From the NCBI GenBank assembly GCA_041309005.1, contig JBFZAN010000053.1, positions 34,252-98,251 of the forward strand: 64,000 nt of DNA. Direction: 5' to 3'. The DNA comes from Candidatus Omnitrophota bacterium (lineage in GTDB: Bacteria; Omnitrophota; Gorgyraeia; Gygaellales; Profunditerraquicolaceae). Of the stretch, positions 47,545-64,000 are shown in pieces. Numbering within the stretch: the stretch's first letter is position 1; each line of letters starts with the position of its first letter. The notes under the pieces are model-generated. The model saw only the letters and a program-made list of their open reading frames with translations. It did not search any database and was not told where the DNA came from. A program made the position numbers and the translations under genes.

Positions 47545-47573
47545 CCTCGGTTTCAAGTTCTGCACGATCCCAG

Positions 47574-47687: not shown

Positions 47688-47715
47688 TTGACTTTTTTTA
47701 AAAATATACTAAAAT
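47688..47715 (+). promoter_or_regulatory. sigma70-like promoter of pilus locus (-35 TTGACT, 16-nt spacer, -10 TAAAAT)
   Basis: TTGACT 47688-47693, TAAAAT 47710-47715, AGGAGA RBS 7 nt before ATG 47753. Same architecture as the promoter at 62209. Confidence 0.5.
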
Positions 47716-47752
47716 ATGACAAATAGTATTAAACTATATCAGGAGATTTTAG

Positions 47753-48406
47753 ATGGGCATTTTCCGGGCAGCGGAAGTGGCTGGCAAATTGAGGATTTCT
47801 AAGCAAACGCTTTTTCGTTACGAAAAAAAAGGCATTTTTCCTAAACCGAGAAGGAACAGGATCAACCGTTGGCGCGAATATAACGAGGAAGAAATACAAA
47901 AAATGAAACAGATCATGGGCAGGGGTTTTACACTGCTTGAATTGATCATAGTAGTGGTGATAATGGGGATCCTGGCTGCCTTGGCCATCCCGCGCTTTGA
48001 AAGTTTCTATACCGTAAAATTGAAGGGAGCGGTGAACAATGTGGTTTCCGACATCCGCTACGTGCAGCAACTGGCGGCCTCCAGCCATGATACCTACAAG
48101 ATGACTTTTTACGTAACTCCCGCCAACAGGTACGAAGTCCAGAAATCAGACAATAGCTACGCGAAGAACCCTTTTGGCCACGGGGATTTTATAATCAATT
48201 TCACAAATGATCCCCAGTATAAAGGGATCGGTATCGATAGCGCGAATATTAACGGAATGAATATCCTGAGCTTCGATTGGAACGGCACGCCCCGGGATGC
48301 AAACGGGAACACCTTGACAGCCGAGGGGCAGGTAAATCTTTCTTATCAAAATGATTCTTTTTCCGTGAGGGTTACGCCTAATACCGGCTGGGTGAGGGTG
48401 CAGTGA
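47753..48406 (+). CDS. type IV pilin/pseudopilin with in-frame N-terminal MerR-like HTH extension (HTH–prepilin fusion ORF)
   Basis: Residues ~8-50 AEVAGKLRISKQTLFRYEKKGIFPKPRRNRINRWREYNEEEI resemble the MerR/excisionase-type HTH. These are followed in the same frame, with no stop, by a textbook class-III signal MKQIMGRG|FTLLELIIVVVIMGILAALAIP (Gly-1, Phe+1, Glu+5) and a pilin-like beta-rich C-terminus. The reading frame was verified codon by codon. Confidence 0.65.
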   Translation: MGIFRAAEVAGKLRISKQTLFRYEKKGIFPKPRRNRINRWREYNEEEIQKMKQIMGRGFTLLELIIVVVIMGILAALAIPRFESFYTVKLKGAVNNVVSDIRYVQQLAASSHDTYKMTFYVTPANRYEVQKSDNSYAKNPFGHGDFIINFTNDPQYKGIGIDSANINGMNILSFDWNGTPRDANGNTLTAEGQVNLSYQNDSFSVRVTPNTGWVRVQ

Positions 48407-48924
48407 AGAATAAAGGCATCAGCCTGATCGAAATGATCATCACGATCGTCATTCTGGGATTGACGATACCCGTTCTTTTGAATATGTGGTCGGACGTAGC
48501 GTTACGATCAGCCCGTTCGGAAGCGCTGGCAGACGCTCTTTTTTACGGACAGCAATTGATGGAGGAGATACAATCAAAGAAATTCGACCAGCATACCGCC
48601 GCGCCCTGGAGCGATACGCTCGGGCCGGATAACGCGGAGACCAGACTAGGCACAGGGAATGCGGGTTTTAATGACGTTGATGATTACAACGGATATTCCG
48701 ACAGTCCCGCGCCAGGCTACAGCCGCTGCGTGACCGTCGATTATGTCGCGCTCAGCGGTACCGCGTGGAACGGAACATGTTCGCCGAATACTCCGTCAGG
48801 CTGCACCCCTGCGTCGTGCACGGCAGGCAATGTGACCGATTACAAACGTATTACAGTCAGGGTGGATCGTAATGACTCCCTGGTAAAAGATATAGTTCTG
48901 GCGCTGGTGGTAAATCCATTTTAG
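48403..48924 (+). CDS. prepilin-type N-terminal cleavage/methylation domain protein (minor pilin/pseudopilin)
   Basis: MKNKG|ISLIEMIITIVILGLTIPVLL with Glu+5; Cys-rich C-terminal region; GTG start overlapping the upstream stop. Confidence 0.6.
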   Translation: MKNKGISLIEMIITIVILGLTIPVLLNMWSDVALRSARSEALADALFYGQQLMEEIQSKKFDQHTAAPWSDTLGPDNAETRLGTGNAGFNDVDDYNGYSDSPAPGYSRCVTVDYVALSGTAWNGTCSPNTPSGCTPASCTAGNVTDYKRITVRVDRNDSLVKDIVLALVVNPF

Positions 48925-48940
48925 AAGGAGGGCTGCGTCA

Positions 48941-49468
48941 TTGCAGGGAAAGCGCGCTCGCTTTAAAAAAGAAGGGGTAACCCTGATAGAGCTGGTGATA
49001 GTGATCGTTATCGTCGGCGTATTAACGGGGGTATCGGCCTTGTATGCCCGGGAGATCGTGGACCTGTGGCGTTTTATTAATTTTCGCAGCGAGATTGTTT
49101 CACAGGGCAGGGCCGCCCTGATGAGGATGGAGAGAGAGATCAGGCAGATCGCGGGTAAGGGGTCGGTATATGCGGCGGGCATTTCGCAATTGCGCTTCCA
49201 TGACATATACGGAAACGATATCCAGTATCAGTGGTTAAGCGACCCCGATCCTTCGATAAAGGGCGCTATCATGCGCAATAACGATATCCTGGTCAAGGGC
49301 GTCGAGAGCCTCGTGTTTAACTATTACGATCAAGATAATAATCCGATCGTTTCTCCTCCTGTCAGTCCGTCGGATACCACCATCAAAAGAATAAGCGTGA
49401 CATTCATAATGCTTGCAGGCGACCAGGAAAAAACGTTGAGCGCGCAGACCTTCCCCCGGAACCTTTGA
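48941..49468 (+). CDS. prepilin-type N-terminal cleavage/methylation domain protein (minor pilin/pseudopilin)
   Basis: ...KKEG|VTLIELVIVIVIVGVLTGV with Glu+5; TTG start 10 nt after the AAGGAGG RBS. Confidence 0.55.
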   Translation: MQGKRARFKKEGVTLIELVIVIVIVGVLTGVSALYAREIVDLWRFINFRSEIVSQGRAALMRMEREIRQIAGKGSVYAAGISQLRFHDIYGNDIQYQWLSDPDPSIKGAIMRNNDILVKGVESLVFNYYDQDNNPIVSPPVSPSDTTIKRISVTFIMLAGDQEKTLSAQTFPRNL

Positions 49469-49504
49469 ACCGGGGCGTTACTTTGATAAAAAAAGGGGGC
49501 CACG

Positions 49505-49777
49505 ATGGCTAAAAAATTTATGTTTGCTTCACTCATCGCGGTATGCCTGTTGCTGGGGATGAGTATGACCCTGAGGGCGCAGAGGCCCCAGGAACAGCCG
49601 GCGGGTACGGATGTCGCAGCGCAGCTTGCCCAGATACGGGCGCAGCTTGAGCAGGTCTCAAATAATGCGGACGCCGCGAACAGGGAAATAGTAAAAAAGC
49701 TGAACGATGTCTTGAGCGATCACGACAAGATATTTAAAGAGCTTGACATTATCAAGGTGAGAGCCAGCCTGAGGTAA
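49505..49777 (+). CDS. small secreted coiled-coil protein
   Basis: Signal peptide FMFASLIAVCLLLGMSMTLRA then helical AAQLAQIRAQLEQV...; 90 aa, sits in the pilus operon. Confidence 0.4.
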   Translation: MAKKFMFASLIAVCLLLGMSMTLRAQRPQEQPAGTDVAAQLAQIRAQLEQVSNNADAANREIVKKLNDVLSDHDKIFKELDIIKVRASLR

Positions 49778-49778
49778 C

Positions 49779-51569: not shown

Positions 51570-51577
51570 GGTGGGAA

Positions 51578-52198
51578 ATGATAACGCTTAAGAAAACAAG
51601 CAAATTTATGCAGGCCGGGCTCCTGTGCCTTGTCTTTTTTTTCGTTCTCGTCGCGCTGTATTTTGCCTGGGGGAGATCTCTTTTTAAGGCCGAGAAGAAG
51701 TTGAAAACGGAATTCAGCCTCAAGCAATCAGAGCTCAAAGAGCAGGAGGTGTTGATCAGGACCGTTCCTGACCCTAAGAAGGCCATCGAAGAGATCGAAA
51801 AAAAGGCGGATGAATTCAAAGATATCGAGGTCGGGAAACGGCAGGTCCCCCGGCTCATCCATCTGCTGGGCAGCGCGGCCGCGGAACACAACATAAATAT
51901 TGTTTCCATAAGGCCGCGGGAGGACATAAAAGTCGCGAATGAGAATCTTCCGTCGGGAGTGACCAAGGTGTATGTCGAGATGGTGCTTGGCTGTCCTTAC
52001 CAGGTGCTGGGCGGGTATTTAGCCGACCTGGGCAAGCTGCCGGTTACCTTTATCATTGAGTCGGTCTCCATAGCGCCCAGGGAAGAAACGGCAACGCCTG
52101 CTCCCGACGCGAAGAAGGCGGCAGTAAGCAAGGGAGAAAGGCCGCAAGAGCTCTTGATAACCCTGCTTTTAAGCACCTATATGATCTATGAAATATAA
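51578..52198 (+). CDS. pilO: type IV pilus assembly protein PilO-like
   Basis: Single N-terminal TM LLCLVFFFVLVALYFAW, coiled coil, periplasmic domain; operon position after PilMN. Start at ATG 51578 after the GAGGTGGG RBS. Confidence 0.55.
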   Translation: MITLKKTSKFMQAGLLCLVFFFVLVALYFAWGRSLFKAEKKLKTEFSLKQSELKEQEVLIRTVPDPKKAIEEIEKKADEFKDIEVGKRQVPRLIHLLGSAAAEHNINIVSIRPREDIKVANENLPSGVTKVYVEMVLGCPYQVLGGYLADLGKLPVTFIIESVSIAPREETATPAPDAKKAAVSKGERPQELLITLLLSTYMIYEI

Positions 52199-52215
52199 GG
52201 TACGGCCGTACGCAT

Positions 52216-52665
52216 ATGGATAAACAGCAAAAACAACTTATTATAATCGGGGTCCTGGTGGTAGTGTTGGCGCTGGCGCTCGTGAGTAATTTAAAAAAGA
52301 AGCCCAAGAAAAAAGCAGCCCCCTTGCCCAAGCCGGATGCGGCGTCTTTGGCCAAATCCGCGCCTGTGGTCAGCGCCGCGCCTGCCGCGGATGCGGGCGT
52401 GCTGGGCGAGCAGATCGAGCGCACGAAGCTTACATGGGGACGAGATCCCTTTTCCGTTAATACGGACAAAACGTTCCAGTTAAGCGAGCTTAAGCTCCAG
52501 GGCATCTCCTTCGGCACAGATAAAAAAGGTTTCGCATTTATTAATGGCGAGATTGTGCAAAAGGGTGATAAAATAGGAGATTACGAGGTCATAGATATCG
52601 AAAAAGAAAGAGTGCTTCTCAAGAGAGGCAGCCAGGATTTTTACCTGGTTTTCCCTGGAGAATAG
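52216..52665 (+). CDS. pilP: PilP-like pilus assembly protein
   Basis: N-terminal TM, Pro/Ala-rich linker, C-terminal beta domain LKLQGISFGTDKKGFAFINGEIVQKGDKIGDYEVIDIEKERVLLKRG typical of PilP/GspC HR domains; immediately precedes the secretin. Confidence 0.5.
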   Translation: MDKQQKQLIIIGVLVVVLALALVSNLKKKPKKKAAPLPKPDAASLAKSAPVVSAAPAADAGVLGEQIERTKLTWGRDPFSVNTDKTFQLSELKLQGISFGTDKKGFAFINGEIVQKGDKIGDYEVIDIEKERVLLKRGSQDFYLVFPGE

Positions 52666-52693
52666 CGGGACAAATAGGCAAAGAGGTCGAAAA

Positions 52694-54094
52694 ATGAAGA
52701 GAAAATTGGCGTGTGTCTGTATTATGGCTTTGATGTGTCTTAGCGCCTGCGTTCATCCGCCCCTGTGCGCGCAGGAGAAGGAAAACCTGGTGATCGAATC
52801 CCTGGAGTTCAGGGAGGTCGATATCAAAGATGTCTTGCGGCAGCTCGCCAAGCAATACAACCTCAACATCGTATTTTCTGAGGCGGTGAAAGGGTTGGTC
52901 ACCGTGCAGCTTAACAACGTGAGCATCGAGCAAGCGCTGGATTCGATCATCACCGTGAACGGCTTCGCGTATACCAAGAAAGAGAACGTCTATAAAGTGA
53001 CCACGCAGGAAGAGGCGCATAAGCAAGGCAAACAGACAAAGCTCTTTAAATTAAATAACGCCGATTCGGCTAAACTGAAGACCACCTTAGAAAAGTCTTT
53101 GACCCCGGAAGGCTCTATTGAGGCGGACAGCCGTTCCAATTCCATAATCATCACGGATTCTCCCGCGGTCATAAGCAAGATAGAGGCGATGATCCCCGAT
53201 CTGGATGAACTTACGCCCCAGGTATTGATCGAGGCGCGCCTGATTGAGGCGTCGCTCAACGACAATGACAAGCTGGGCTTTGATTGGTCTACGACGGTCG
53301 CGGCGTCCGGCTCTTCGCGCCCCATCACGTTTCCTTTTAGCGGCAAGGGCAATTATAACCCCGGGACGTTTACTCCCCTGAACACGACAGCCGGTTTCAC
53401 GGGGCCGTACGCCTTTCCTTCCGCGGCCGCGGAAAATTTCACCTTTGGCACGCTTGATTTTACTTCCCTGAAGGCTGTGCTCGACATGTTAAAGACGCGC
53501 AAAAAGACCAAGCTCGTCGCCAATCCCAGGATAGTCACCCTTAATAACCAGAACGCCTCCATTAATGTCGGTAAAGTCCTGGCGTTGCCTACCTACGAGA
53601 GGAACGAAACAACCGGAAAGCTGGAGATCACCGGATGGACTAATTATAATGTAGGCGTCAATTTAAGCGTCACTCCGCAGGTAAGCCCCGACGGCCATAT
53701 CAAGCTGAAATTAAAGCCCGAGGTAAGCAGCCTCATCGGGTACGCTTCTCAAAGGGACGGCGTCAATGAGGGCCCTATCACTTCGTCCCGGACGGCGCAA
53801 ACCGAAGTGCAGATGAGAGACGGCCAAACGGTCGTGATCGGAGGGCTGGTCAAGGAAGAATCATTCACCATCACAAAGAAGATACCCGTGCTGGGGGATA
53901 TCCCCATCCTCGGGGCTTTGTTTACGCGAAAGGAAGTCGGCTCGACGGAGAACCCTACCGAAAAAACCGACTTGCTAATCTTTGTGACAGCCCGTATAAT
54001 TAAAGAAAGCGACGCGCCACTGCTCGCAAACGACAGCGCTCTGGTGACTTCCGGGAGGAGGCCGTTTAAACTGGACATGAGAAAGATCAAATGA
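52694..54094 (+). CDS. pilQ: type IV pilus secretin PilQ
   Basis: Signal peptide; N0/N1-type domains (VIESLEFREVDIKDVLRQLAKQYNLNIVF...); secretin core QTVVIGGLVKEE...KIPVLGDIPILGALFT. Confidence 0.85.
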   Translation: MKRKLACVCIMALMCLSACVHPPLCAQEKENLVIESLEFREVDIKDVLRQLAKQYNLNIVFSEAVKGLVTVQLNNVSIEQALDSIITVNGFAYTKKENVYKVTTQEEAHKQGKQTKLFKLNNADSAKLKTTLEKSLTPEGSIEADSRSNSIIITDSPAVISKIEAMIPDLDELTPQVLIEARLIEASLNDNDKLGFDWSTTVAASGSSRPITFPFSGKGNYNPGTFTPLNTTAGFTGPYAFPSAAAENFTFGTLDFTSLKAVLDMLKTRKKTKLVANPRIVTLNNQNASINVGKVLALPTYERNETTGKLEITGWTNYNVGVNLSVTPQVSPDGHIKLKLKPEVSSLIGYASQRDGVNEGPITSSRTAQTEVQMRDGQTVVIGGLVKEESFTITKKIPVLGDIPILGALFTRKEVGSTENPTEKTDLLIFVTARIIKESDAPLLANDSALVTSGRRPFKLDMRKIK

Positions 54095-55449
54095 CGGATA
54101 AGAAATTCTTTGTTTTGCTGGTGGCGACGATAGGGATATTCCTTGCGCTTTTTTACTCCGCGAGGAGCGCCAGGCGTACCCAGACCGCCCAAACGCCGCC
54201 GGCGGGCAGCTCGCTGCCCCAGGCCACGATACCGATGCTGGAATCAAGGATGCAGCAGTTAAAGGACGCAGTCTCAACCTACGGCCAGCTAAACGTTTCG
54301 CTGCATAAGGCCTTCAACGAAGAAAAGGAAAAGTCGCTTGAGGTACGGGAAAAAGCGATGAGCCTGCAGGAAGAATTAAAAAATGTCACCGCGCAAAAAG
54401 ACGCCCTCTCAAAAGAATTGTCCGACACCAGGACGAAGCTGGAAATGACCCAACCTTTAAAGCAGAAGCTTATCCAGATGGAGACTGCGTTATCGGGATT
54501 GAACTTCAGCCAGGATATGCAGGGTGAGGTGGTGGCCCGGCTGGACACGCTGATCAAGGAGCTGGATTCCATCGACCAGCAGATGCCGTATCTGCTCAAT
54601 GAAAACATGGCCTTTAAAGTGCAGGTGCAGAACCTTTCCGATCTTCTTGGCCGCAAAGAGCAGGAACTGGCTGTACTGAAACAGCAGGCAGAAGACGCAA
54701 AAGTCAAAAATCAAACGCTCAGCAAGAACGTGGACGCGCTCTTAGAGCAGCTTATGGCGGCCAGCAAAGGGAGGCAGGCGCTGGAGCAGAAGGCCGCTGA
54801 TCTGGAAAAGGTCGCTTCGAATCTAAAAAAAGCCGGCTATTTCCTGAAGGAAAAATTAGAAAAGACGCGCAAAGAGCTCGGGGAAGTCAAGGAAAGAGAG
54901 GCAAGGGCCGCTCAGGAAAAACAGGAGGCTTTGGGCGGGCTGGGCGCAAGGCAGGAGCACCTGGCAGCGCTTGAAACCAGAAACCAGGCATTGGAACAGG
55001 AACTGGCGTCGCTCAAGGAAAAACTGGAGACGCTCAGTAGGGAATACGCGGGTTTCAAGGACGAACACGCAACCGCGCAGCTGGCGATCAGGCAGACTGA
55101 AGCGGAATTAAAGAAAAACAGGGATGAAATATCCTATTTTAAGGATAAGCTTGCCGACGCGGATACGAGGTTCATCGAACTTCAGTCAAAATATAACGAG
55201 GTGAAAAAAGAATCCGCTGTATTGCGGGAACAGTACGTGAATGTACAGCTGGAAAGGGAGAGGTTAAGGGATGAATTACAGCGGGCGCGGATGAATTTGA
55301 GCGAACTGCAGAATAAATTCCAGAAAATAGGCACTATGTTTATGTCGCAACCGCCGCCGCAGATGGCTTCGCCCGAAGAAGGGGCCTCTTCTCGCAGGAA
55401 GGTCGACGTGGAGCTTCTTCCCAAGACGAAAGAGGGATCTGAACAATGA
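54091..55449 (+). CDS. membrane-anchored long coiled-coil protein
   Basis: N-terminal TM FFVLLVATIGIFLALF followed by ~400 aa of heptad-rich sequence (many EL/QL/KEL repeats). Confidence 0.45.
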   Translation: MTDKKFFVLLVATIGIFLALFYSARSARRTQTAQTPPAGSSLPQATIPMLESRMQQLKDAVSTYGQLNVSLHKAFNEEKEKSLEVREKAMSLQEELKNVTAQKDALSKELSDTRTKLEMTQPLKQKLIQMETALSGLNFSQDMQGEVVARLDTLIKELDSIDQQMPYLLNENMAFKVQVQNLSDLLGRKEQELAVLKQQAEDAKVKNQTLSKNVDALLEQLMAASKGRQALEQKAADLEKVASNLKKAGYFLKEKLEKTRKELGEVKEREARAAQEKQEALGGLGARQEHLAALETRNQALEQELASLKEKLETLSREYAGFKDEHATAQLAIRQTEAELKKNRDEISYFKDKLADADTRFIELQSKYNEVKKESAVLREQYVNVQLERERLRDELQRARMNLSELQNKFQKIGTMFMSQPPPQMASPEEGASSRRKVDVELLPKTKEGSEQ

Positions 55450-56183
55450 GCCGCGATGCGCTTATATTGTGCGCTGCCGTGTGCGTGTCCGTTTCTGCCG
55501 CAATACGGGCCTATGGCGCGCCGGCCGAGGCTGGCCTGCCACCTGGCCGCATGATGCCGGCGCCCGCTGCCGACGCGGCGATAGCCGTTACGCAGGATGC
55601 CGGGTTGACCAGGCAGGAAAAGATAGAAAAGGCGCGCCAGCTTTATTCTCACGGGGAACAGCTTCTGGAGGACGGGAATTTTGTCGCCGCAGACGACGCG
55701 CTTAAAAGAGCGCAACGGTTACTCGAGGAATCCATACCCCGGCAAGCGCCGCTGCGTTTAAACGAAGCGCCTGCGTCCGATGATGACGGGGTGGCCGTGG
55801 AAGAACGGGTATGGCCCGCATCCAAGGCGTGGGAACTGTCTCAAGAAGGCGCTTCAGAAGAAGCGGTCGGCTATTACCTGAAGGCGATCGATCTTGAACC
55901 CGGGCGCGCCGACCTGTATTATAATCTGGGGGTAGAGTATTTAAAGACCGGTCAATATGCGTTTGCGGTAAAGGCCTTTAAAGAGTCGCTGCGCCTTGAC
56001 CCGAAGGACGCGTTCTCCTGTTATAATTTGGGGGTGCTCTACGAAGATTATCTTAAGGAGAAAAAACAGGCGCTGGAATATTACCGGAAGTTCCTGAAGC
56101 TTGCGCCCAACGCGGAGGAAGCGCCCGAAGTAAAGCGCTGGATACAGGAACTGATCAACTATTATAGCGAGGATGAACGATAA
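55446..56183 (+). CDS. TPR-repeat protein with signal peptide (PilF/Tgl-like pilotin candidate)
   Basis: Signal peptide LILCAAVCVSVSAA; TPR motifs (AVGYYLKAIDLEPGRADLYYNLGVEYLKTGQYAFAVKAFKESLRLDPKDAFSCYNLGVLYE...). Confidence 0.55.
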   Translation: MSRDALILCAAVCVSVSAAIRAYGAPAEAGLPPGRMMPAPAADAAIAVTQDAGLTRQEKIEKARQLYSHGEQLLEDGNFVAADDALKRAQRLLEESIPRQAPLRLNEAPASDDDGVAVEERVWPASKAWELSQEGASEEAVGYYLKAIDLEPGRADLYYNLGVEYLKTGQYAFAVKAFKESLRLDPKDAFSCYNLGVLYEDYLKEKKQALEYYRKFLKLAPNAEEAPEVKRWIQELINYYSEDER

Positions 56184-57876
56184 AGACCTGGAAGGTTTAT
56201 TATTATCTACGCATCTCTTAGACGAGACAGAGCTGCATAAGGCTCTGGACGAGATGAGGAAATTAAAGAGGCCGCTGGAAAAAATAGTGGTCGATATGCG
56301 CCTTGTTGACCGCGCGAGCCTCTACGAAGCGATAGCCAAGCACCAGGGGTTCAGTTACGTCGCGCTGGATTCCGTCCAGTATGACGAGACATTGACCAGG
56401 GTTATGCCCGAGGGTCTGGCGCGCCAGACGCAATCCGTTCCCTTCAGGACCGCTAACGATACTCTTCACGTCGCGATGGTTGAGCCCACCGATCTCTACG
56501 CAATCGATCAGATCCAGATGCATACCGGTACGCCCATCGAGGTATATCTTTCCAGCCCCCAGGAAATAGAAGAGGCGCAAAGCAGGCTGTATGCGGGCAA
56601 GAGCGCTCCCAGCGCGAAGAAGCTCATGGAGGGGATCACGAAAGTCTCTTCCGGCGTCGCCAAAGAGGCGGCCACCGAAGGGACTTCGATCATCAAGCTC
56701 GTAGATTTGGTTATATCCCAGGCAGTGCACGACAGGGCCTCGGACATCCATATTGAGCCGGAACAGGATATGCTGCGCATCAGGTTCAGGATCGACGGCA
56801 TCCTGCACGAGATACCCTCTCCTCCAAAAGAATGGGAGGCGGCGATTATTTCCCGGGTCAAGGTTTTATCGAATATGGACATCGCCGAGAGCAGGGTCCC
56901 TCAGGACGGCCACTTTCAGGCAAAGGTCGATGACAAGATAGTGGATTTCCGCGTCGCCACCATACCCACCATATACGGGGAGAACCTGGTCATGAGGCTC
57001 CTGGATACCGCCTCGGTAATGATCGGGCTGGAAAAGCTGGGGTTTGCAACGGAGTTTGAATTAAAGGCCTATGAGAAGCTGATCAATATGCCTTATGGGA
57101 TAATCCTTTCGACCGGCCCCACGGGAAGCGGCAAGACCACGACGCTTTATTCCGCGTTAATGAGGATAAATACCGTCGACAAACACATCATTACTATCGA
57201 GGACCCGGTGGAGTACCGCCTGGGGCTGATACGGCAGATCCAGGTGAACCCCAAGGCGGGGATTACCTTCGTCAACGGCCTGAGGGCGATTTTACGCCAG
57301 GATCCCGACGTGATCATGGTGGGGGAGATCAGGGATCTGGATACGGCGGTCATCGCGGTGCAGGCAGCGCTCACCGGCCATCTGGTGTTTTCCACGCTGC
57401 ACACAAACGACGCAGCGTCTGCGGTAACGCGCCTGGTAAACATGGGGGTTGAGCCGTTTTTGATCTCCGCCTGTCTGATCGGCGTGCTCGCGCAGCGCTT
57501 AGTAAGAAAGATATGCGAGCATTGCAAGGAGCCTTACGAACCGCCGGCGCTTATTATGCGAAGATGGGGTTTGGATAAAAAGAAAGGGCTCCTGCTCTAC
57601 CATGGCCGGGGCTGCGACCACTGTAAGGGTACCGGCTTCCGGGGGCGCGCCGGCATATTCGAGCTGTTGGTTGTCGACGATGAGATCCGGGAGATGATAA
57701 TTCAGGGAGCTTCCGCCATGGCGCTGCGCAAAAAAGCCCAAGTCAAAGGCATGAAGCTTTTAAGCGATGACGGATTAAGCAAAGTTTTGTCCGGCGTGAC
57801 TACCATCGAAGAGGTCTCCAGGGTCTGCGCCGAGCAGTCAGACGCTGTCCCGGATGATACGGAAGAGAAAGAATAA
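56173..57876 (+). CDS. pilB: type IV pilus assembly ATPase PilB (GspE family)
   Basis: N-terminal T2SSE_N domain, Walker A GPTGSGKTTT, Asp box, Walker B ...DPDVIMVGEIRD, His box, tetracysteine CEHC...CDHC. Confidence 0.9.
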   Translation: MNDKDLEGLLLSTHLLDETELHKALDEMRKLKRPLEKIVVDMRLVDRASLYEAIAKHQGFSYVALDSVQYDETLTRVMPEGLARQTQSVPFRTANDTLHVAMVEPTDLYAIDQIQMHTGTPIEVYLSSPQEIEEAQSRLYAGKSAPSAKKLMEGITKVSSGVAKEAATEGTSIIKLVDLVISQAVHDRASDIHIEPEQDMLRIRFRIDGILHEIPSPPKEWEAAIISRVKVLSNMDIAESRVPQDGHFQAKVDDKIVDFRVATIPTIYGENLVMRLLDTASVMIGLEKLGFATEFELKAYEKLINMPYGIILSTGPTGSGKTTTLYSALMRINTVDKHIITIEDPVEYRLGLIRQIQVNPKAGITFVNGLRAILRQDPDVIMVGEIRDLDTAVIAVQAALTGHLVFSTLHTNDAASAVTRLVNMGVEPFLISACLIGVLAQRLVRKICEHCKEPYEPPALIMRRWGLDKKKGLLLYHGRGCDHCKGTGFRGRAGIFELLVVDDEIREMIIQGASAMALRKKAQVKGMKLLSDDGLSKVLSGVTTIEEVSRVCAEQSDAVPDDTEEKE

Positions 57877-57879
57877 AAA

Positions 57880-59109
57880 ATGCCTACGTACGTATATAAA
57901 GCGGTAGACCAATTGGGTAAGCTTGTGAAGGGCGAGATGGACGCGGTAAGCGAAGTGGAGTTGACCACGCAGCTAGCCAAAATCGGGTATCTGCCCGTAA
58001 GCATAAGCTTCAAGACCAAAGGGGGAAAATCAAAAGAAGCCGCAGAAAGCTTTCTGAAGAGCGGGTATAAGGTTGATACCCAGGCGCTGGTGGTATTCAC
58101 CCGTCAGTTCGCGACGATCATAAAAGCCGCAGTCCCCATACTGGAAGGCCTTGGGGTATTGGCTGAGCAGGCGGAGGACCCGGCGCTCAAAGAGGTGCTG
58201 CGTAAAGTCATCCATGATGTTGAGGGCGGCGCGAGCCTCTCCCAGGCGATGGCAAAACACCCGGGCGTGTTTTCCAAGCTGTATATCAATACGGTGATCG
58301 CGGGGGAAAGCGCCGGAGTGTTGGACAAGGTGCTGCTAAGGCTCGCCAAGATGCTGGAAAATGATCAGGAGACGCGGTCCAATATCCAGTCTGCGTTACG
58401 CTACCCGATCATGGTGGTCATTGCGATGCTGGTGGCGGTTGTCGTATTGTCGGTATTTGTTATCCCCCAGTTTGCCAAGATCTATACGAGCGCCAAAGTG
58501 GCGTTGCCGCTGCCTACGCAGGTAATGATATTCATAAGCAATATTCTCATCCATCACTGGTTCATCCTCGTGCCTGTTGTGATAGGCGTAATTTTTGCCT
58601 TCCAGTGGTACATTAATACAACCGCGGGCAGGTGGCTCTGGGACGGCCTTAAATTCAAAGTGCCGATCGTCAGCAAGCTGTACACCAAAATGACGATGTT
58701 GCGCTTTGCCTCGATGCTCAGCGTCCTTTATCAGGCGGGGCTTCCCGTGCTCAGCACGCTGGATATCGTGGGGATGACTATCGGCAACGTGGTCCTTTCC
58801 AGGGAAGTGGACGTGATAAAACGCGATGTCGCCGACGGTAAAGGTATTTCAGGCGCGGTGTTGAACAGCCAGTTTTTCCCCAGGCTCGTCGGGTATATGA
58901 TCGCGATAGGAGAAAAAAGCGGCCAGCTTCCGATGATGCTGGATTCCCTGTGCGAATACTTCGATCTGGAAGTGAAGACCGTCACCAAGAACCTGACTAC
59001 CATGATCGAACCGGTGATGACCGCCGTATTAGGCACGGTCGTGGTCGGGATGGCGTTATCGATCTTTCTGCCGTTGTGGAACATGATACAGGTAATCAAG
59101 GGGGGATAA
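57880..59109 (+). CDS. pilC: type IV pilus platform protein PilC (GspF family)
   Basis: Two GspF repeats (..GESAGVLDKVLLRLAKMLE.. and ..GEKSGQLPMMLDSLCEYF..), three TM helices. Confidence 0.9.
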   Translation: MPTYVYKAVDQLGKLVKGEMDAVSEVELTTQLAKIGYLPVSISFKTKGGKSKEAAESFLKSGYKVDTQALVVFTRQFATIIKAAVPILEGLGVLAEQAEDPALKEVLRKVIHDVEGGASLSQAMAKHPGVFSKLYINTVIAGESAGVLDKVLLRLAKMLENDQETRSNIQSALRYPIMVVIAMLVAVVVLSVFVIPQFAKIYTSAKVALPLPTQVMIFISNILIHHWFILVPVVIGVIFAFQWYINTTAGRWLWDGLKFKVPIVSKLYTKMTMLRFASMLSVLYQAGLPVLSTLDIVGMTIGNVVLSREVDVIKRDVADGKGISGAVLNSQFFPRLVGYMIAIGEKSGQLPMMLDSLCEYFDLEVKTVTKNLTTMIEPVMTAVLGTVVVGMALSIFLPLWNMIQVIKGG

Positions 59110-59122
59110 CCAAAAAAAGGAT

Positions 59123-59980
59123 ATGGCGGGAATGGTGATTTCTATTGCGATAGTACTGGTCGTTTCTGCTGCGTTCGCTTTTTACGCGGTGGCGGTCGAC
59201 CGCCGCTGGAAGAAGAAAATAGAGGAAAAAACAAACCTGGTCAAGGAAGCCGAGGCGCAGATAGTGCATATGGAAAAAATGGCTTCCCTGGGCACGCTTG
59301 CCGCCGGGATCGCGCATGAAATAAACAACCCTTTAGGATTTTTGATCAGCAATCTCCAGAATCTCAAGGAATATATCCAGAAGCTGGAAGGAAAAATTTC
59401 TCTCGAAGAAAAAGAAAATCAGGTACTGCTCGATGATTTTAAGGCGATAGCCCAGGAGTCGCTCGATGGCGCGAAGCGCATAAAAAAGATCGTCTCGGAC
59501 CTGCGAACTTTTTCCCGCAGGAGCGAAACGCAGCATATCACTATCGACGTCAACCAGATCCTGGAAACCGTATTATCGATCGTCTGGAACGAGATAAAAT
59601 ATAAGGTCACGGTGGTAAAGGATTACCAGGCGAGCTCTACTACTTTGGGGGATCCGACCCAGCTGTCCCAGGTATTCCTGAACCTTGTCATCAACGCCAG
59701 CCAAGCTATCGCGGAGAAGGGCTCGATCAGCATCTCGACTTCGGAAGACGCGAACAATATTTACATCAAGATCGCCGACACCGGAAGCGGTATTGCGCCT
59801 GAAGTGCTGCCTAAGATATTCGACCCGTTCTTTTCCACAAAAAAAAGCACCGGGCTTGGCCTTTCGGTAACGTATAATATCGTTAAGCATCACGCAGGAG
59901 ATATACAGGTAGAAAGCAAAGTGGGCGCCGGCACGACCTTTACCGTTTGGCTGCCGAAAATAGCCAAACAAAACGAATAG
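59123..59980 (+). CDS. sensor histidine kinase (single TM, HisKA + HATPase_c)
   Basis: TM ISIAIVLVVSAAFAFYAVAV; H-box LAAGIAHEINNPL; N box LNLVINASQA; G boxes DTGSGI...GLGLSV. Confidence 0.8.
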   Translation: MAGMVISIAIVLVVSAAFAFYAVAVDRRWKKKIEEKTNLVKEAEAQIVHMEKMASLGTLAAGIAHEINNPLGFLISNLQNLKEYIQKLEGKISLEEKENQVLLDDFKAIAQESLDGAKRIKKIVSDLRTFSRRSETQHITIDVNQILETVLSIVWNEIKYKVTVVKDYQASSTTLGDPTQLSQVFLNLVINASQAIAEKGSISISTSEDANNIYIKIADTGSGIAPEVLPKIFDPFFSTKKSTGLGLSVTYNIVKHHAGDIQVESKVGAGTTFTVWLPKIAKQNE

Positions 59981-60017
59981 CGCACACAAAAGGTATCGAC
60001 AAGAGGAGGTGATCGGC

Positions 60018-60227
60018 ATGAGAAAGGTATACAATCTCGGCGACGATCTGTTTTTAGCGGTTGCATTTGTCTCGTTTATAGTGGGGGCAGTGTTGCGGCT
60101 CATGGGGATCTATGAGATAGCCTGGGGGATCACCAACCGCGCGCTGATCGTGAACGCCATCATATGCCTTTTATTCAGCATCGCGCTGAGCTTATATGAC
60201 CTGGCGCGCACCCAGGGCAAAGCGTAG
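60018..60227 (+). CDS. small membrane protein (2 TM, 69 aa)
   Basis: AAGAGGAGG RBS 8 nt before ATG 60018; two hydrophobic helices. Confidence 0.35.
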   Translation: MRKVYNLGDDLFLAVAFVSFIVGAVLRLMGIYEIAWGITNRALIVNAIICLLFSIALSLYDLARTQGKA

Positions 60228-60317
60228 CTTTTCACGGTATCTACGCGTGTGGTGTTATTGCCGCGAAACCAAAAACGCTTTAAAAATCGCTTTGAGGCGT
60301 TTTGATAAGGAGAAGGT

Positions 60318-60689
60318 ATGGCTTCCTACGACGAAAAAAGACAGTACCAGAGAGCGTATTTCAAAATAAAGGTGGAATGCAGGGGTAAGAGTTTCTGGCA
60401 GTACGTCGAGACCAGGGACATCTCCGCCGGAGGGATGTTCGTGGTTACGGATAAAGTAGAGCCAGCCAAAACGAAGATCGAAGTGATGTTCGAGTTCGAT
60501 GAGGGAGAGAAGAAGTTCATTTATGCGGAAGGCGTCGTCGCATGGAGCAGGGGCAAGCCCTTTAAGAACGAGGCCGGCGAAACCATACCGGCCGGAATGG
60601 GCATTATGTTTACCAAAATAACCCCTTCGGGAGGAAAGGCGTATATCGACCAATTGGTGAAGCAGACAGAGGAGAAGAAGAATGGCTAA
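60318..60689 (+). CDS. PilZ-domain protein
   Basis: RQYQRAYFK (RxxxR) and TRDISAGGMFV (DxSxGG) c-di-GMP-binding motifs; 123 aa. Confidence 0.7.
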   Translation: MASYDEKRQYQRAYFKIKVECRGKSFWQYVETRDISAGGMFVVTDKVEPAKTKIEVMFEFDEGEKKFIYAEGVVAWSRGKPFKNEAGETIPAGMGIMFTKITPSGGKAYIDQLVKQTEEKKNG

Positions 60690-61254
60690 GCATACTATTT
60701 TAATCGTTGATGATGAGCAGAATATCTTAAGCAGCCTCTCGAGAGTGTTACGCACCGAGGACAGGCAAGTCCATACCGCCGGCTGCGTCCAGGAAGGCAT
60801 CGAGAAGTTAAAGGCCTTAGGCGGCATAGACCTGGTGATCTCGGATAACCGGATGCCTGACGGAACGGGGGTCGATTTCCTGGTCAAGGTAAAGCAGTTG
60901 TATCCGGATACTATCCGGATACTTTTTACAGGGTACCCGGATCTTGACGCGGCCATCCAGGCGATCAATAAGGGGCAGGTCTACCGGTTTATCACCAAGC
61001 CCTGGGAAAATGAGGAGCTCAAGCTTATCGTGAGGCAATCGCTCGATTATTTCGACGTGCTCAGGGACAACCGCGTCCTGTTAAAGATCGCCCGCCAACA
61101 GGCGGAAATGCTGGAGACCATGCAAAAGAAATACCCCCAGGTTTCCCAGGAAGATATTAACAGGGGGGGGCTCTACATTATCGATGAGCAGCGGGTCTCG
61201 GAAACGCTTTCCGATTTTTTAAAGAAATATTACCCTCAGCAGATCAAAGAGTGA
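60682..61254 (+). CDS. response regulator receiver protein (REC + short C-terminal extension)
   Basis: ILIVDDEQNIL, phospho-acceptor region LVISDNRMPDGTG, ...ILFTGYPD..., KPW motif. Confidence 0.8.
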   Translation: MAKHTILIVDDEQNILSSLSRVLRTEDRQVHTAGCVQEGIEKLKALGGIDLVISDNRMPDGTGVDFLVKVKQLYPDTIRILFTGYPDLDAAIQAINKGQVYRFITKPWENEELKLIVRQSLDYFDVLRDNRVLLKIARQQAEMLETMQKKYPQVSQEDINRGGLYIIDEQRVSETLSDFLKKYYPQQIKE

Positions 61255-61279
61255 CCGCCTGTTAAAAAGGAGCCCGCCA

Positions 61280-62116
61280 GTGCAGGATTTTGAAGAAAAG
61301 CTTATCCAGGGCAAATGGCTTACCAGCCAGAATTATTCTATCGCGAAGAAAGAAGCCGGGAGGCTTGGCAGGTCGATCTGGTCTACCATGGTCAGGCTCG
61401 GTTTTCTTTCAGAAGAGGATATCTCTACCTTTTTTGCCGAAGAGAGCGGCATCCCCCACGCAAGGCTTTCCGATTATGAAATGGAGGAAGGAGTCGTGCG
61501 TCTCGTCAGCGAGGAGTTTTGCCGAAAGCACAGCGTGATCCCTGTTTTTAGAATCCAGGATACGTTATTCGTCGCCTTCAGTAATCCGCTTGATGCCTCT
61601 TGCATAGATAGCCTGGTTAAGATGACCGGCCTTGCTGTCGAACCTTTGATAACTTCAAAGCGCGCTATCTCTACCGCCCTGGATACCCATTACGGTCCTG
61701 ACGATAACGACTTCCTGATAGAGCAGTTCTTATTCAGGAAGAATCCGTTGCAGGGGATCCCCTTCAAAAGGGAAGCCGAGAGGATCAATTTAGAGATCCC
61801 GGTATCCCTTAAGGTAGTGGATAGCTCTGTCAGATTACATTACTCTTCGCCGATAGAGGGCTTTACGCGCAATATTTCGGTAAACGGGACGGCCCTGAGC
61901 CTTCAGGTGTTTTTGTTTCTGCCCAGGGATATCGCGGTTTCTCTTGAATTTAAGCCTACGCAGACTCTCTTTTCTTCAGGAGAAAGCATAGGCGCCAAGG
62001 GCCAGATCGTATATTGCCAGATGGAAAAAGGCCAGCGGTATTTGCTGGGTGTTCGATTTACTGATATAGCGAGTGAAAGCTTAAACACGCTTATTCGCCT
62101 GGCAAGAAGAAAATAA
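61280..62116 (+). CDS. T2SSE_N (GspE/MshE N-terminal-like) + PilZ two-domain protein
   Basis: N-terminal GspE_N-like fold (LGRSIWSTMVRLGFLSEEDISTFF...KHSVIPVFRIQDTLFVAFSNPLD...); C-terminal PilZ-like beta-barrel (REAERINLEIPVSLKVVD...RNISVNGTAL...). Confidence 0.6.
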   Translation: MQDFEEKLIQGKWLTSQNYSIAKKEAGRLGRSIWSTMVRLGFLSEEDISTFFAEESGIPHARLSDYEMEEGVVRLVSEEFCRKHSVIPVFRIQDTLFVAFSNPLDASCIDSLVKMTGLAVEPLITSKRAISTALDTHYGPDDNDFLIEQFLFRKNPLQGIPFKREAERINLEIPVSLKVVDSSVRLHYSSPIEGFTRNISVNGTALSLQVFLFLPRDIAVSLEFKPTQTLFSSGESIGAKGQIVYCQMEKGQRYLLGVRFTDIASESLNTLIRLARRK

Positions 62117-62208
62117 ATCAAGATCGGAATTATCTTCGTCTTTCCATCTTACTAAGTAATTGTAAGTAAAAGGGTAATGGGCAGCAAAGATAATAACAAA
62201 GATAAATC

Positions 62209-62237
62209 TTGACAATTTATATTTGATGACTTAAAAT
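62209..62237 (+). promoter_or_regulatory. sigma70-like promoter (-35 TTGACA, 17-nt spacer, -10 TAAAAT)
   Basis: TTGACA 62209-62214, TAAAAT 62232-62237; upstream of the stand-alone HTH gene; mirrors the promoter at 47688. Confidence 0.45.
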
Positions 62238-62302
62238 TATACCAAAGTATATCAAATATGGTCAGACTTGATCTAGGGAGAATAAGGGTTTCGTATAATT
62301 AA

Positions 62303-62494
62303 ATGGAAAAAAACAGGTTATATACAATCCAGGAAGTCGCAGAAAAGTTGGGTATTTCCAAGCAAACTCTTTTCCGTTACGAAAAGAAAGGCATTTTCCC
62401 GAAACCTAAACGGAACACGATCAATCGCTGGCGTCAATATACGGAAGAAGATATTAATAAGCTTAAAGAAATAATAAGGGGAAGTATTGAATAA
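62303..62494 (+). CDS. small MerR-like HTH protein (63 aa), paralogue of the N-terminal extension of the pilin at 47753
   Basis: MEKNRLYTIQEVAEKLGISKQTLFRYEKKGIFPKPKRNTINRWRQYTEEDINKLKEIIRGSIE; the 41-aa core is ~80% identical to the fused copy (ISKQTLFRYEKKGIFPKP[RK]RN.INRWR.Y.EE.I.K.K.I). Confidence 0.6.
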   Translation: MEKNRLYTIQEVAEKLGISKQTLFRYEKKGIFPKPKRNTINRWRQYTEEDINKLKEIIRGSIE

Positions 62495-62942
62495 GGGAGG
62501 CGTATTTCTTTTACTCCTGTGTTTCGGTATGCTTGCCGGCTGCGAAAGAGAAGCGGCGGTAAGCGTTAAAAAGAAGTCCGCCAAGACAAAAGGGAATAAG
62601 GCGGAAATGGCAGCTCACAGCGACGCTGAAGCGGGAGCATCCGGCGCGAAGCCGGCTATCATCGAGTCTTCAATGAGGACTAACCCGTTTTTGACCAGGG
62701 AGGAAGAAGACCTCTATAAGAAACAGGATACGCGAAGGCCTGTTAATTTTGACCTTTCCGCTATATTCTATGCCCCTCCCAAAAGCAAGGCTGTGATCGC
62801 AGGCAGGATCTACAAAGAAGGCGATATCGTTGACAATAAGGAAATCGTGAAGATCAATACCGGCGACGTTATTTTAAAAGACGGGCAGGGCGAATATATC
62901 CTGCGCCTGAAAACAGTGTTAAGGAGCGGTCCGCAGGGATGA
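62487..62942 (+). CDS. lipoprotein with PilP-like C-terminal beta domain
   Basis: Lipobox LLLLCFGMLAGC; the C-terminus VNFDLSAIFYAPPKSKAVIAGRIYKEGDIVDNKEIVKINTGDVILKDGQGEYILRLK follows the same pattern as the PilP-like gene at 52216. Confidence 0.45.
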   Translation: MNKGGVFLLLLCFGMLAGCEREAAVSVKKKSAKTKGNKAEMAAHSDAEAGASGAKPAIIESSMRTNPFLTREEEDLYKKQDTRRPVNFDLSAIFYAPPKSKAVIAGRIYKEGDIVDNKEIVKINTGDVILKDGQGEYILRLKTVLRSGPQG

Positions 62943-64000
62943 AAAAAGAATTAATTGCCAAGAAAGGGGTCCACTTCGTGCTTCTTGCCTGCCTGCCCCT
63001 TGCGCTGGGATGGCAAAAAGTAAGCCTCGGGGATTATATCAAGACCCGCGCGGCAGCCGAAGAAAAGCAGGCATATGCAGAGCTGCCCCGGGATGCGTCG
63101 TTTAGCGCCTACCAGATCCTGGAGAAAGCGACCTCGGCATTTTATAAGACAAAGACCATGAAAATATCCATGGAGGCGTGGTTTGAAACGCCCCTGTATC
63201 ACATAAAGTCAGATTTTAAAAGCAGCATCGAGAATATCGATAATTATAAGACCGACGGCCAGACCAGCCTGTCGTTATTGATCCCGCATAGCGCTTCCAG
63301 CTCCCGCTGGGTCCAGTCCTACCAGATCGACGGTATCCCTTTTACCTGGGACCTCAACAAGAGGGAATGGCGCCAGGAAGAATTGAAAATTTCCGGCAAA
63401 GATGCCAAGAAGGTGCTCGAGTACAGCGTGCTCAGAAGCCTGTTTACCATCAACGAGGGGTCTGTTGATCCCGCGACGGTGCGGGTGCTGGGCGCGGAAA
63501 AGAGGAAAGGCAGGGATTGTTACGTACTTTCATATAAACTCAACCCCAAACTTTTCAAGCGATGGAATACCTTAGGCGACATTTCGGTTAAGACCTGGAT
63601 CGGTATGCAAGATTTTCTTCCCGTATCGCTGCGTTCGGAAGGGACGATCTCCGATATGTATATCCTGCAAATAGTCGATTATTCTGATTTCAACGCTCCC
63701 CTTGAGCTGGCCGTACCACCGGTGATTTCCGATGCTTGTCAGAAAGAGCGGGAAAAACTGGAAGGGAAAATAGGCGGCCTGGTGGACTTCGTATCCGGGG
63801 TACAGGGATGGGCCAAGCCCGATAAGCTCCCGATAGTGTTTAAGGACAGGGTATCATTGCGGGAATTTCTTGCCGCAAAGCTTACGAAAGAGCGCAGCGT
63901 TCAGAAGCTTGCCAACGATGCGTATATTTTTAAATGGCTTGGCCTTCTGGATAAAGACGCCGATTACAAGGAGAGCATTCTTAACTCCGAGGTTTCCTCG
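62939..64000 (+). CDS. secreted hypothetical protein, 5' partial in window (runs off the 3' end)
   Basis: Open frame from ATG 62939 (ATGA overlap with the upstream stop) to the window end without a stop (manually translated); N-terminal signal-like HFVLLACLPLALG. Confidence 0.4.
   Translation, partial: MKKELIAKKGVHFVLLACLPLALGWQKVSLGDYIKTRAAAEEKQAYAELPRDASFSAYQILEKATSAFYKTKTMKISMEAWFETPLYHIKSDFKSSIENIDNYKTDGQTSLSLLIPHSASSSRWVQSYQIDGIPFTWDLNKREWRQEELKISGKDAKKVLEYSVLRSLFTINEGSVDPATVRVLGAEKRKGRDCYVLSYKLNPKLFKRWNTLGDISVKTWIGMQDFLPVSLRSEGTISDMYILQIVDYSDFNAPLELAVPPVISDACQKEREKLEGKIGGLVDFVSGVQGWAKPDKLPIVFKDRVSLREFLAAKLTKERSVQKLANDAYIFKWLGLLDKDADYKESILNSEVSS

Follow-up and report, generated by a model that had tools for sequence, protein, structure and literature searches.

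The 64,000-nt stretch of DNA considered here in its full length (the window), from a Candidatus Omnitrophota bacterium, contains two copies of a small helix-turn-helix (HTH) domain of the MerR type. One is a stand-alone protein of 63 amino acids (aa) encoded at the head of a pilus/secretion operon, and the other forms the N-terminal leader of a prepilin encoded at the head of a type IV pilus locus. The reading that we favour, and regard as fairly probable, is that the stand-alone protein is an operon-heading regulator and that its fused paralogue is a leader which prepilin peptidase would release as a regulator in turn. The homology of the two copies, their predicted folds, the synteny of their loci, the integrity of a fusion that is under selection, and a DNA element that is both conserved and enriched upstream of the HTH genes are all directly observed.

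A MerR-type winged helix, free and fused

The two genes, and the parts of the fused one, are placed in the window as follows.

62303..62494, + strand: stand-alone HTH gene, 63 aa, ATG start, MerR-type winged helix
47753-48406, + strand: HTH-pilin fusion open reading frame (ORF), 217 aa, single frame
47753..47926, + strand: HTH leader of the prepilin, residues 1-58, MerR-type winged helix ending ...MKQIMGRG
47927..48406, + strand: mature GspH/FimU-like minor (pseudo)pilin, starting FTLLELIIVVV, Glu at +5
47741..47745, + strand: Shine-Dalgarno AGGAG, 7 nt before the fusion ATG

The stand-alone protein (MEKNRLYTIQEVAEKLGISKQTLFRYEKKGIFPKPKRNTINRWRQYTEEDINKLKEIIRGSIE) is identical to database protein P0006, which stands for one 90%-identity cluster, and is matched in Pfam by MerR_1 (3.3e-14, spanning profile positions 1-50 of 69) and by MerR (1.1e-10). 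A phmmer search of the PDB returns MerR-family chains (4ua1, 3qao, CarH) at E 2e-6 and weaker. Its AlphaFold2 (AF2) model, with a predicted local distance difference test score (pLDDT) of 81, is made up of a strand, the helix-turn-helix, a beta-hairpin wing and a final helix (residues 48-61). The top PDB matches of this model in Foldseek are the N-domains of MerR-family proteins, headed by HiNmlR (query-normalised template-modelling score, TMq, 0.83; root-mean-square deviation 1.2 Å), after which come CueR, CadR and CarH and then the domain-only proteins RacA and BldC (target-normalised score, TMt, 0.72 and 0.67, respectively). The MerR dimerisation coiled-coil helix is not present, as judged from length, Pfam coverage and the AF2 model, nor is there an effector or metal-binding region, there being no residues left beyond the DNA-binding domain. 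On sequence and model the 63-aa protein is a MerR-type winged-helix domain without dimerisation or effector part, best explained by loss of the dimerisation helix and of the effector domain of MerR.

Pfam also returns weak HTH_17 and Phage_AlpA matches to the protein, which, together with a similar size and fold, would suit an excisionase or AlpA-type recombination directionality factor of a mobile element that lies beside pilus genes by chance. That such a factor is what the gene encodes seems to us exceedingly unlikely, in that MerR_1 is the best match by far, the same operon position recurs in more than 20 species-level genomes, and no integrase is found in Pfam scans of the flanking ORFs of the window or in the family lists for loci L005-L013 and L015, the other loci having been compared only with pilus-locus references.

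The 63-aa ORF aligns without gaps to residues 3-55 of the fusion, with 37/53 residues identical (70%), 85% positives and an E value of 4e-25. A sequence-only reading of the window had proposed ~80% identity over the core; the homology of the two HTH segments is secure, but the higher figure fits only the stretch ISKQTLFRYEKKGIFPKP.RN.INRWR.Y. That reading also had the likeness stop at the pilin cleavage site (KLKEIIRGSIE* versus KMKQIMGRG|FT), which pairwise alignment of both protein and DNA bears out, and at the DNA level the likeness of the two genes begins in their promoters.

The similarity of the two tails (KEIIRGSIE versus KQIMGRGFT), which the sequence-only reading placed in the region of the pilin leader, was considered as a sign of a copied pilin leader and rejected, since a ..K(I/L)(L/M)GR.. 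tail is found throughout the HTH family, many free members of which end ..ILGRG* or similar. Indeed, about 12 of the 28 stand-alone proteins in the HTH alignment end in the very column of the fusion's -1 residue (..ILGRG*, ..ILGRI*). The tail also resembles the junction of MerR helices 3 and 4.

The HTH as the leader of a minor prepilin

Pfam recognises both halves of the 217-aa fusion, with MerR_1 at 3e-8 and N_methyl at residues 57-78 (3.9e-6). The junction between them, ...KMKQIMGRG|FTLLELIIVVV, carries a class III signal peptide, GRG|FTLLELIIVVVIMGILAALAIP, with Gly at -1, Phe at +1, Glu at +5 and a hydrophobic helix of ~21 residues. The AF2 model of the fusion (pLDDT 95) places the winged HTH (wHTH) at residues 1-44, followed by one long helix (45-111) and a beta-sheet head, such that the 'lollipop' fold of a pilin is present and the last helix of the HTH merges into the pilin transmembrane helix. 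By Foldseek the head is nearest to EpsH/GspH (2qv8, TMt 0.72) and to the type IVa minor pilin FimU (4ipu), and Pfam GspH is annotated in orthologues; because of these matches the HTH is, on sequence and predicted structure, assigned to a priming-type minor pilin and not to a major pilin.

Class III leaders as described are hydrophilic, of 6-26 residues, and have no known function of their own (PMC4471445). The leader here lies outside that range, with 58 aa in the window and between 58 and 61 aa in relatives; AF2 predicts it to be a folded domain.

The fusion is not peculiar to the window. A scan of one genome per species recovered it intact in 10 species representatives of the Genome Taxonomy Database (GTDB; L019-L028, 56-69% identical), in each case as one uninterrupted frame of 212-220 codons that opens at the start of the HTH and closes at the stop codon of the pilin, and it is intact also in contigs L001, L015 and L018. 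An exhaustive search of representatives gave four HTH-pilin proteins of full length, P0062, P0065, P0072 and P0064 (the last cut by a contig end), to which word-index searches added P0001 and P0212. Moreover, P0017, called as a plain pilin, is a truncated fusion whose contig begins in the middle of the HTH, in frame (..DEDIKKMKRIIGRG|FT). A mid-HTH start in a frame continuous with the pilin is recorded for contig L002. The intact fusion is always the first gene of a syntenic pilin-pilin-pilin...PilMN-PilO-PilP-like/secretin locus. Fusion and stand-alone copy occur together in four genomes, in three of them on one contig in the arrangement of the window. In a neighbour-joining tree of HTH segments, which is midpoint-rooted, without support values and built from short sequences, the fusion copies form one clade among stand-alone branches, which suggests a single fusion event.

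It might be supposed that the HTH codons are functionless, a stop codon having been lost, and that the pilin is made from an internal Met (MKQIMGRG|FT). Such a Met stands 8 residues before the cleavage site in the window, in L001 and in several others, and would give a normal-looking short leader; a decayed HTH, moreover, persists in P0072. We nonetheless consider an inert extension very unlikely. Intact fusions occur in 14 or more diverged lineages, and four lineages (L026, L028, P0064, P0065) have no Met between HTH and cleavage site, their junctions being RKLQSIIGRA|FT, EDFKHRLKKG|IT, EELKRKLKKG|IT and RKIEQILGRA|FT. AGGAG is found 7 nt before the HTH start (ATG or GTG) in 12 of 13 aligned fusion loci, which supports translation from the HTH start, whereas no well-placed Shine-Dalgarno precedes the internal Met in the five junctions read at the DNA level. 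The ratio of nonsynonymous to synonymous substitution rates (dN/dS) of HTH codons 2-52 is 0.00-0.08 among fusion orthologues (pairs with dS 0.4-2.4), against 0.03-0.23 for the first 60 codons of the mature pilin, the HTH being the lower in every pair for which both were estimated. The residues of the recognition helix and wing (LGISKQTL.RYEKKGI.P..RN.IN.WR.Y) are, furthermore, alike in fused and free copies. It is because of this body of evidence (the ribosome-binding site, the internal-Met data, the dN/dS values and the conserved residues) that the fused HTH is to be read from its sequences as a real, translated and functional part of the prepilin.

One further orthologous pilin carries a different HTH leader (P0080, 214 aa; L014 513-1157, on a single 1.3-kb metagenome contig). 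Its leader is matched by Pfam HTH_17, is excisionase/BldC-like and joins the pilin at ...KWADKFRRDKG|LTLIEV; it would be an independent fusion. A protein search and a metagenome scan for a second fusion of this type gave only free HTH_17 proteins and an unfused pilin, and P0080 is not used as evidence here. N-terminal extensions of 40-100 aa in other pilins of the representative search (P0074, P0077, P0087 and others) were rejected as fusions, being, as judged by eye, of low complexity or the result of mis-called starts, with an ordinary Met-leader near the cleavage site.

Promoters and a tandem 10-bp element

Upstream of the two genes lie the following sites.

62209..62237, + strand: promoter of the small HTH gene, sigma-70-like TTGACA-17-TAAAAT, 11/12 matches
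62243..62262, + strand: candidate operator of the small gene, units CAAAGTATAT CAAATATGGT, 5 nt after the -10 hexamer
47688..47715, + strand: promoter of the HTH-pilin fusion, sigma-70-like TTGACT-16-TAAAAT
47720..47739, + strand: candidate operator of the fusion, units CAAATAGTAT TAAACTATAT

The sequence-only reading had described the two promoter regions as look-alikes, and rightly so: they are the best (62209-62237) and second-best (47688-47715) sigma-70-like sites in 47400-64000, and they align past the hexamers too. The -35/-10 layout of the small gene recurs in relatives. The candidate operator of the fusion follows the -10 hexamer at a distance of 4 nt, 33 nt ahead of the start codon, and has an exact copy of the consensus unit CAAATAGTAT at 47720-47729. 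When 13 fusion promoters are aligned on the start codon, a block CAAATA(G/T)TATTAAG(G/A)TATATCAGGAG is near-invariant at -33 to -8; the -10 hexamer is partly conserved and the sequence upstream of it is not, the -35 giving no 80% consensus, yet with cTTGC or cTTGAC in every row. In the fourteenth fusion (L028) the block lies 35 nt upstream of the start codon and has two mismatches.

The same unit recurs, often in tandem, immediately downstream of the -10 hexamer in the promoters of stand-alone HTH genes (see for example CAAATAGTATCAAATAGTAT in L035, CAAATACTATCAAGTATTAT in L031 and CAAATAGTATCAGATATGGT in L042, the better-kept L042 site being TAAAGT-ATAGT-CAAATAGTAT-CAGATATGGT). At the clearest loci it begins 4-5 nt beyond the -10 hexamer, whereas anything between 22 and 151 nt separates it from the start codon; it is therefore the promoter, and not the site of ribosome binding, to which the position of the element is tied. 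A search of 395 kb (loci and window, either strand, at most one mismatch) gives 32 matches to the element, 21 of which lie, in gene orientation and at 19 of 35 loci, within the 7 kb made up by the 200-nt regions upstream of HTH genes. Composition-matched shuffles of these upstream regions contain 0.9 matches on average and 4 at most. The element also precedes an orthologous pilin that is without an HTH (L003), which fits a regulator acting in trans. On these sequence grounds the tandem CAAATAGTAT units are a likely candidate operator, of two or three 10-bp units.

Alternatively, the block could be a feature of the promoter or of the initially transcribed region, or an RNA element of the 5' untranslated region (UTR), for instance a CsrA-like site over CAGGAG, with the HTH binding elsewhere or having a non-transcriptional role. 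In favour of this, the conserved block spans the Shine-Dalgarno in fusion loci, and the copy before the small gene of the window is degenerate. We nevertheless think it improbable, given the constant distance from the -10 hexamer at stand-alone loci, the direct tandem copies and the concentration of two thirds of all near-exact copies upstream of HTH genes. A known RNA element at either promoter was sought and rejected, Rfam matching nothing there in a search of 47400-64000 (E <= 1), and a 5' UTR hairpin (ATAGT-ATTAA-ACTAT) was also rejected, the stem being lost in relatives while the direct-repeat register is kept. The sole Rfam match in that interval is an ALIL pseudoknot at 59176-59287 (+), within the histidine-kinase gene, which at 24.8 bits against a gathering score of 50 is probably due to chance.

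The stand-alone gene at the head of a second operon

The genes that bear on the context of the small HTH gene are these.

62487..62942, + strand: lipoprotein, 151 aa, TTG start, lipobox MLAG|C, GspB/PilP-position-like C-terminal domain
52216..52665, + strand: PilP-position gene, 149 aa, between PilO and secretin, paralogue of the lipoprotein C-terminal domain
62939..64000, + strand: DUF8575-family gene, 5' part, with an ATGA overlap with the lipoprotein gene, cut by the window end

As far as the sequence indicates, the small HTH gene opens a new transcription unit, at the head of a second pilus/secretion operon of the secretin type. The order of that operon is HTH, GspB/PilP-like lipoprotein, DUF8575, split secretin, ATPase and pilin, and the window ends inside the third of these; the ORF at 62939 is 48% identical over 346 aa to the DUF8575 protein of L005 (tblastn, E 1e-105). 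In the relatives L005 (8644-12977) and L008 (8843-15500) the second operon has a DUF8575 protein of 667-685 aa. Its secretin is split into an STN/Secretin_N protein and a separate Secretin-domain protein, after which come the second GspE-type ATPase and a PilW_C pilin.

An AAGGGG box precedes the TTG start of the lipoprotein, the gene for which overlaps the small HTH gene; the overlap had been noticed from the sequence alone and counted as 7 nt, its actual length being 8 nt. An overlap of 8 nt is also given by the called or detected gene coordinates of six relatives (L031, L041, L042, L044, L045, L048), and an overlap of this kind suggests that translation of the two genes, HTH and lipoprotein, is probably coupled.

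The sequence-only reading had further matched the C-terminus of the lipoprotein to the gene at 52216 and called both PilP-like. The match itself holds: the last ~46 residues are 33% identical to the 52216-52665 product over 46 aa (E 4e-5), and a comparison at profile level (HHalign) between 18 homologues of the lipoprotein and 8 of the 52216 product has a probability of 97.5% and an E value of 9e-12 over 78 columns. The homologous stretch is thus one of ~80 aa, with NPF/DPF...L.L.aI...A.INg.i.k.GD......V..I....V.L as the motifs common to both families. The family name is not borne out, as Pfam PilP (PF04351) is absent both among the ten families matched by 15 lipoprotein homologues (E <= 0.1) and among the matches of the 52216 gene. 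T2SSB/GspB matches 12 and CdsD_C 13 of the 15, weakly in both cases (best E-values 1e-8 and 3e-5), and the sole Pfam match of the lipoprotein in the window is CdsD_C at 18.6 bits, below the curated cut-off of 27. 'PilP-like' is acceptable as a positional label, for a small anchored protein encoded beside the secretin, and not as a statement of PilP family membership.

Small homologues of the stand-alone protein are MerR-type proteins of 58-70 aa in several hundred 90%-identity clusters, all named sources of which are Omnitrophota/Omnitrophica. Their contexts were followed in three diverged lineages (L005, L008, L011) and at 25 stand-alone loci of GTDB species-representative genomes. At 20 of these 25 loci the next gene after the HTH gene is that of the same lipoprotein, which itself lies directly upstream of the secretin-N and secretin genes, such that the order in these loci is lipoprotein, DUF8575 (optional), secretin-N-domain protein, secretin, second GspE-type ATPase and PilW_C-type pilin. 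Among the remaining five, one HTH gene stands before a PilM-like gene, one before a short ORF followed by ATPase-PilC-pilin genes, one (L050) before two large secreted proteins and a pilin, and one (L049) before a 1,062-aa protein; the fifth (L053) is a Thermotogota hit, 43% identical and probably unrelated. The lipoprotein is also undetected where the contig ends, in L034, L043 and L046, the last of which has the same two large proteins as L050 and then the contig end.

So far, then, the family has been seen almost only in Omnitrophota, and almost always at the head of pilus/secretion operons. The sequence-only reading had proposed a dedicated family of pilus-locus regulators, one copy of which became fused to its target, and had suggested a survey of related genomes. 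That survey, with lipoprotein adjacency in most stand-alone loci and the fusion in 10 species representatives, argues for the proposal at the level of sequence, as do the intact fusions and the tree.

Five lineages have two small HTH genes in tandem before the lipoprotein gene (L011 4301-4667, L030 5986-6352, L033 2217-2671, L034 2875-3244, L039 5980-6347). The stretches retrieved for these five loci contain no HTH-pilin fusion, and two free HTH copies may there stand in for a fusion and one free copy.

Proposed release of the leader, and its alternatives

The leader of a prepilin is cytoplasmic and is cut off on the cytoplasmic face of the membrane, after the last Gly (PMC4471445, PMC10191384). 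In the mechanism that we propose, the 63-aa protein would bind the tandem CAAATAGTAT units after the -10 hexamer in the promoters of both operons. Direct repeats one helical turn apart over the predicted start site, in a family without a dimerisation helix, point to a BldC-like mode, in which monomers would bind the repeats head to tail. They also point to autoregulation, which, with the units over the predicted transcription start, would most simply be repression. Prepilin peptidase would cut the fusion and thereby yield one free 58-residue HTH (..MKQIMGRG) for each processed minor pilin, in a 1:1 ratio, and the freed HTH would couple the processing of the minor pilin to the transcription of two pilus operons. 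A leader so freed would be an ordinary member of the free family in both length and sequence, because about a dozen free members end in the same column.

The cleavage motif itself, [G/A]|[F/M/I][T/S]xxE, is kept in 14 of 14 fusions. This bears on a different reading of the same protein, namely that it stays unprocessed and membrane-tethered in the manner of ToxR, TcpP and CadC, its periplasmic pilin fold sensing pilin pools or the assembly machine and the free paralogue being its soluble counterpart. The topology would fit, the HTH being N-terminal and followed by one hydrophobic helix and a domain on the outside, and so would the strong selection on the HTH and the promoter element common to both classes. 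However, apart from the retention of the cleavage determinants (Gly/Ala at -1, Glu at +5) throughout, the head has a typical GspH/FimU fold, the gene is the first of a minor-pilin cluster, the HTH-less orthologue P0055 has an ordinary short leader, and an uncleaved leader generally blocks filament assembly (PMC4471445). A permanently tethered regulator is hence unlikely in our view, an inert extension being much less likely still. Tethering before cleavage is, in any case, compatible with release after it.

Several points weigh against release of the leader as a regulator. DNA binding to the element, the direction of regulation, cleavage and leader release are steps that we infer from sequence. 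The AF2 helix at 45-111 runs unbroken across the cleavage site, which is uninformative as to access by the peptidase, and the Ala at -1 (two lineages) and Ile at +1 (two others) are less usual for cleavage. No prepilin peptidase (A24) is found in the window by tblastn with an Omnitrophota A24 protein; in two relatives (L011, L030) an A24 peptidase gene lies ~1.5 kb upstream of the HTH genes. At the small gene of the window each unit of 62243-62262 has three mismatches from CAAATAGTAT, a degenerate and, taken alone, weak site. The loci share ancestry, so that the motif counts are not independent events and exceed the number of such events, although the two promoter classes are old paralogues despite the kinship among loci. 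The block of the fusion promoters covers the whole 5' UTR, Shine-Dalgarno included, part of which could act as RNA. Finally, the leader of P0072 (211 aa), equal in length and in the same position, contains an HTH that has decayed (MGLFLLVEVTRKLDISKGVLLYYKKWVISYFTHQSH...); in other words, a long leader is tolerated and a DNA-binding role is dispensable in at least one lineage.

More tentatively, and with rather more doubt than confidence, the release of the leader can be extended to a full circuit, in which the leader would be a transcription factor, prepilin peptidase a signalling protease, and the flux of pilin maturation would feed back on two operons through the shared tandem-repeat operator. 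Prepilin leaders are usually treated as short, disposable tags and, to our knowledge, prepilin peptidase has so far been known only as a maturation enzyme. Release of the leader, if it occurs, would tie gene expression to the assembly of an envelope filament in a new way and would add a new role to those of prepilin peptidases. Pili of Omnitrophota are thought to be important for a host-associated lifestyle, and these uncultured bacteria would gain a defined regulator, a candidate operator and a regulon of two operons.

Relation to known regulators and pilins

The finding appears, from sequence, to join two known kinds of protein, a small wHTH operon regulator and a prepilin with a functional-domain leader. 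The full-text literature searched describes neither a pilin leader that bears an HTH nor the present family of Omnitrophota regulators, which is not proof of novelty.

Of the known regulators, BldC from Streptomyces (68 aa, PDB 6AMA/6AMK) is a relative of MerR that consists of the DNA-binding domain only and binds tandem direct repeats cooperatively, head to tail (PMC5859096). The 63-aa protein is of similar size, has the same MerR-type winged helix without coiled-coil dimerisation helix or effector domain, and belongs to a family whose promoter element consists of tandem direct units about one helical turn apart. It differs in the unit itself, which is the 10-bp CAAATAGTAT here and the 9-bp AATTxxxxC for BldC, and in its remit, BldC being a global developmental regulator that is never part of a pilin, whereas the present family would be dedicated to its operons. 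There is no sequence match to BldC at E <= 1 (phmmer), and in Foldseek the 6ama chains are 24-28% identical and rank under many canonical MerR domains. As far as can be gathered by analogy, then, the 63-aa protein would work in the manner of the BldC-type domain-only proteins.

The canonical MerR activators (MerR, CueR, SoxR, BmrR, HiNmlR) have a homologous N-terminal wHTH. Unlike them, the present protein ends at residue 63, without dimerisation helix or sensor. Its promoters do not have the MerR-type palindromic operator within an overlong spacer of 19-20 nt, the spacers being of 16-17 nt and the element a direct repeat that comes after the -10 instead of a palindrome between the hexamers. 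Three of the four features that define the class (dimerisation helix, effector domain and operator) are thus lacking.

With type IV pilins and the pseudopilins of the type II secretion system (T2SS), such as GspH/EpsH and FimU, the fusion has in common the cleavage motif, the helix, the head and a minor-pilin cluster beside PilMNOP-secretin-ATPase-PilC genes. It departs from them in a leader of 58-61 residues that is a folded and conserved DNA-binding domain with free-living paralogues.

The export of FlgM through the flagellar basal body, the processing of pro-sigma-K by SpoIVFB and the sensing of PilA by PilS-PilR are cases of control that is coupled to assembly or released by proteolysis. 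As in these, a step of an envelope machine or an intramembrane protease would alter the level of a free cytoplasmic regulator; there is no homology with them, however, and the regulator here would be the leader of a structural subunit, freed in a 1:1 ratio by an ordinary prepilin peptidase. ToxR, TcpP and CadC are membrane-bound one-component regulators, with an HTH of the OmpR type and an outside domain that is not a pilin. The uncleaved fusion would resemble them in topology, with its wHTH in the cytoplasm, one transmembrane helix and a further domain in the periplasm, and is unlike them in the MerR type of its HTH and in its conserved prepilin cleavage site.

Other features of the loci

The stretch from 47.7 to 62.1 kb is one type IV pilus/T2SS-like locus, entirely on the + strand. 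It begins with the HTH-pilin and two further pilins, whose leaders are short and ordinary, followed by a 90-aa gene and a PilM-PilN fusion, continues with PilO, the PilP-position gene, the secretin, a coiled-coil protein and a TPR protein, and ends with a PilB/GspE ATPase, PilC/GspF, a histidine kinase, a response regulator and an MshEN-PilZ protein. Nearly all long non-shadow ORFs of the 64-kb window are on the + strand, the minus-strand ORFs overlapping longer plus-strand ones.

PilM and PilN are one 596-aa protein at 49779-51569 (+), with Pfam PilM_2 at 43-407 and PilN at 509-594; the same fusion is found in relatives (591 aa in L015, for example). The PilO ORF at 51296-52198 (+) has a mechanically assigned GTG start 270 nt inside the PilMN gene, and a true start near 51587 fits the Pfam PilO match and the orthologues. 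In relatives, a pilin-like gene of 508-575 aa (N-terminus KKGMSLVIVIF...) lies between the third pilin and the 90-aa gene (L019 7746-9272, L015 2739-4466); tblastn finds no copy anywhere in the window, where the counterpart, 49468-49505, is 36 nt only. At the other end of the locus, 61280-62116 (+) encodes a 278-aa protein in which MshEN, the N-terminal domain of GspE/MshE ATPases, is joined to PilZ without the ATPase part. Many relatives keep this gene immediately before the small HTH gene, and its product suggests an input of cyclic di-GMP to the locus.

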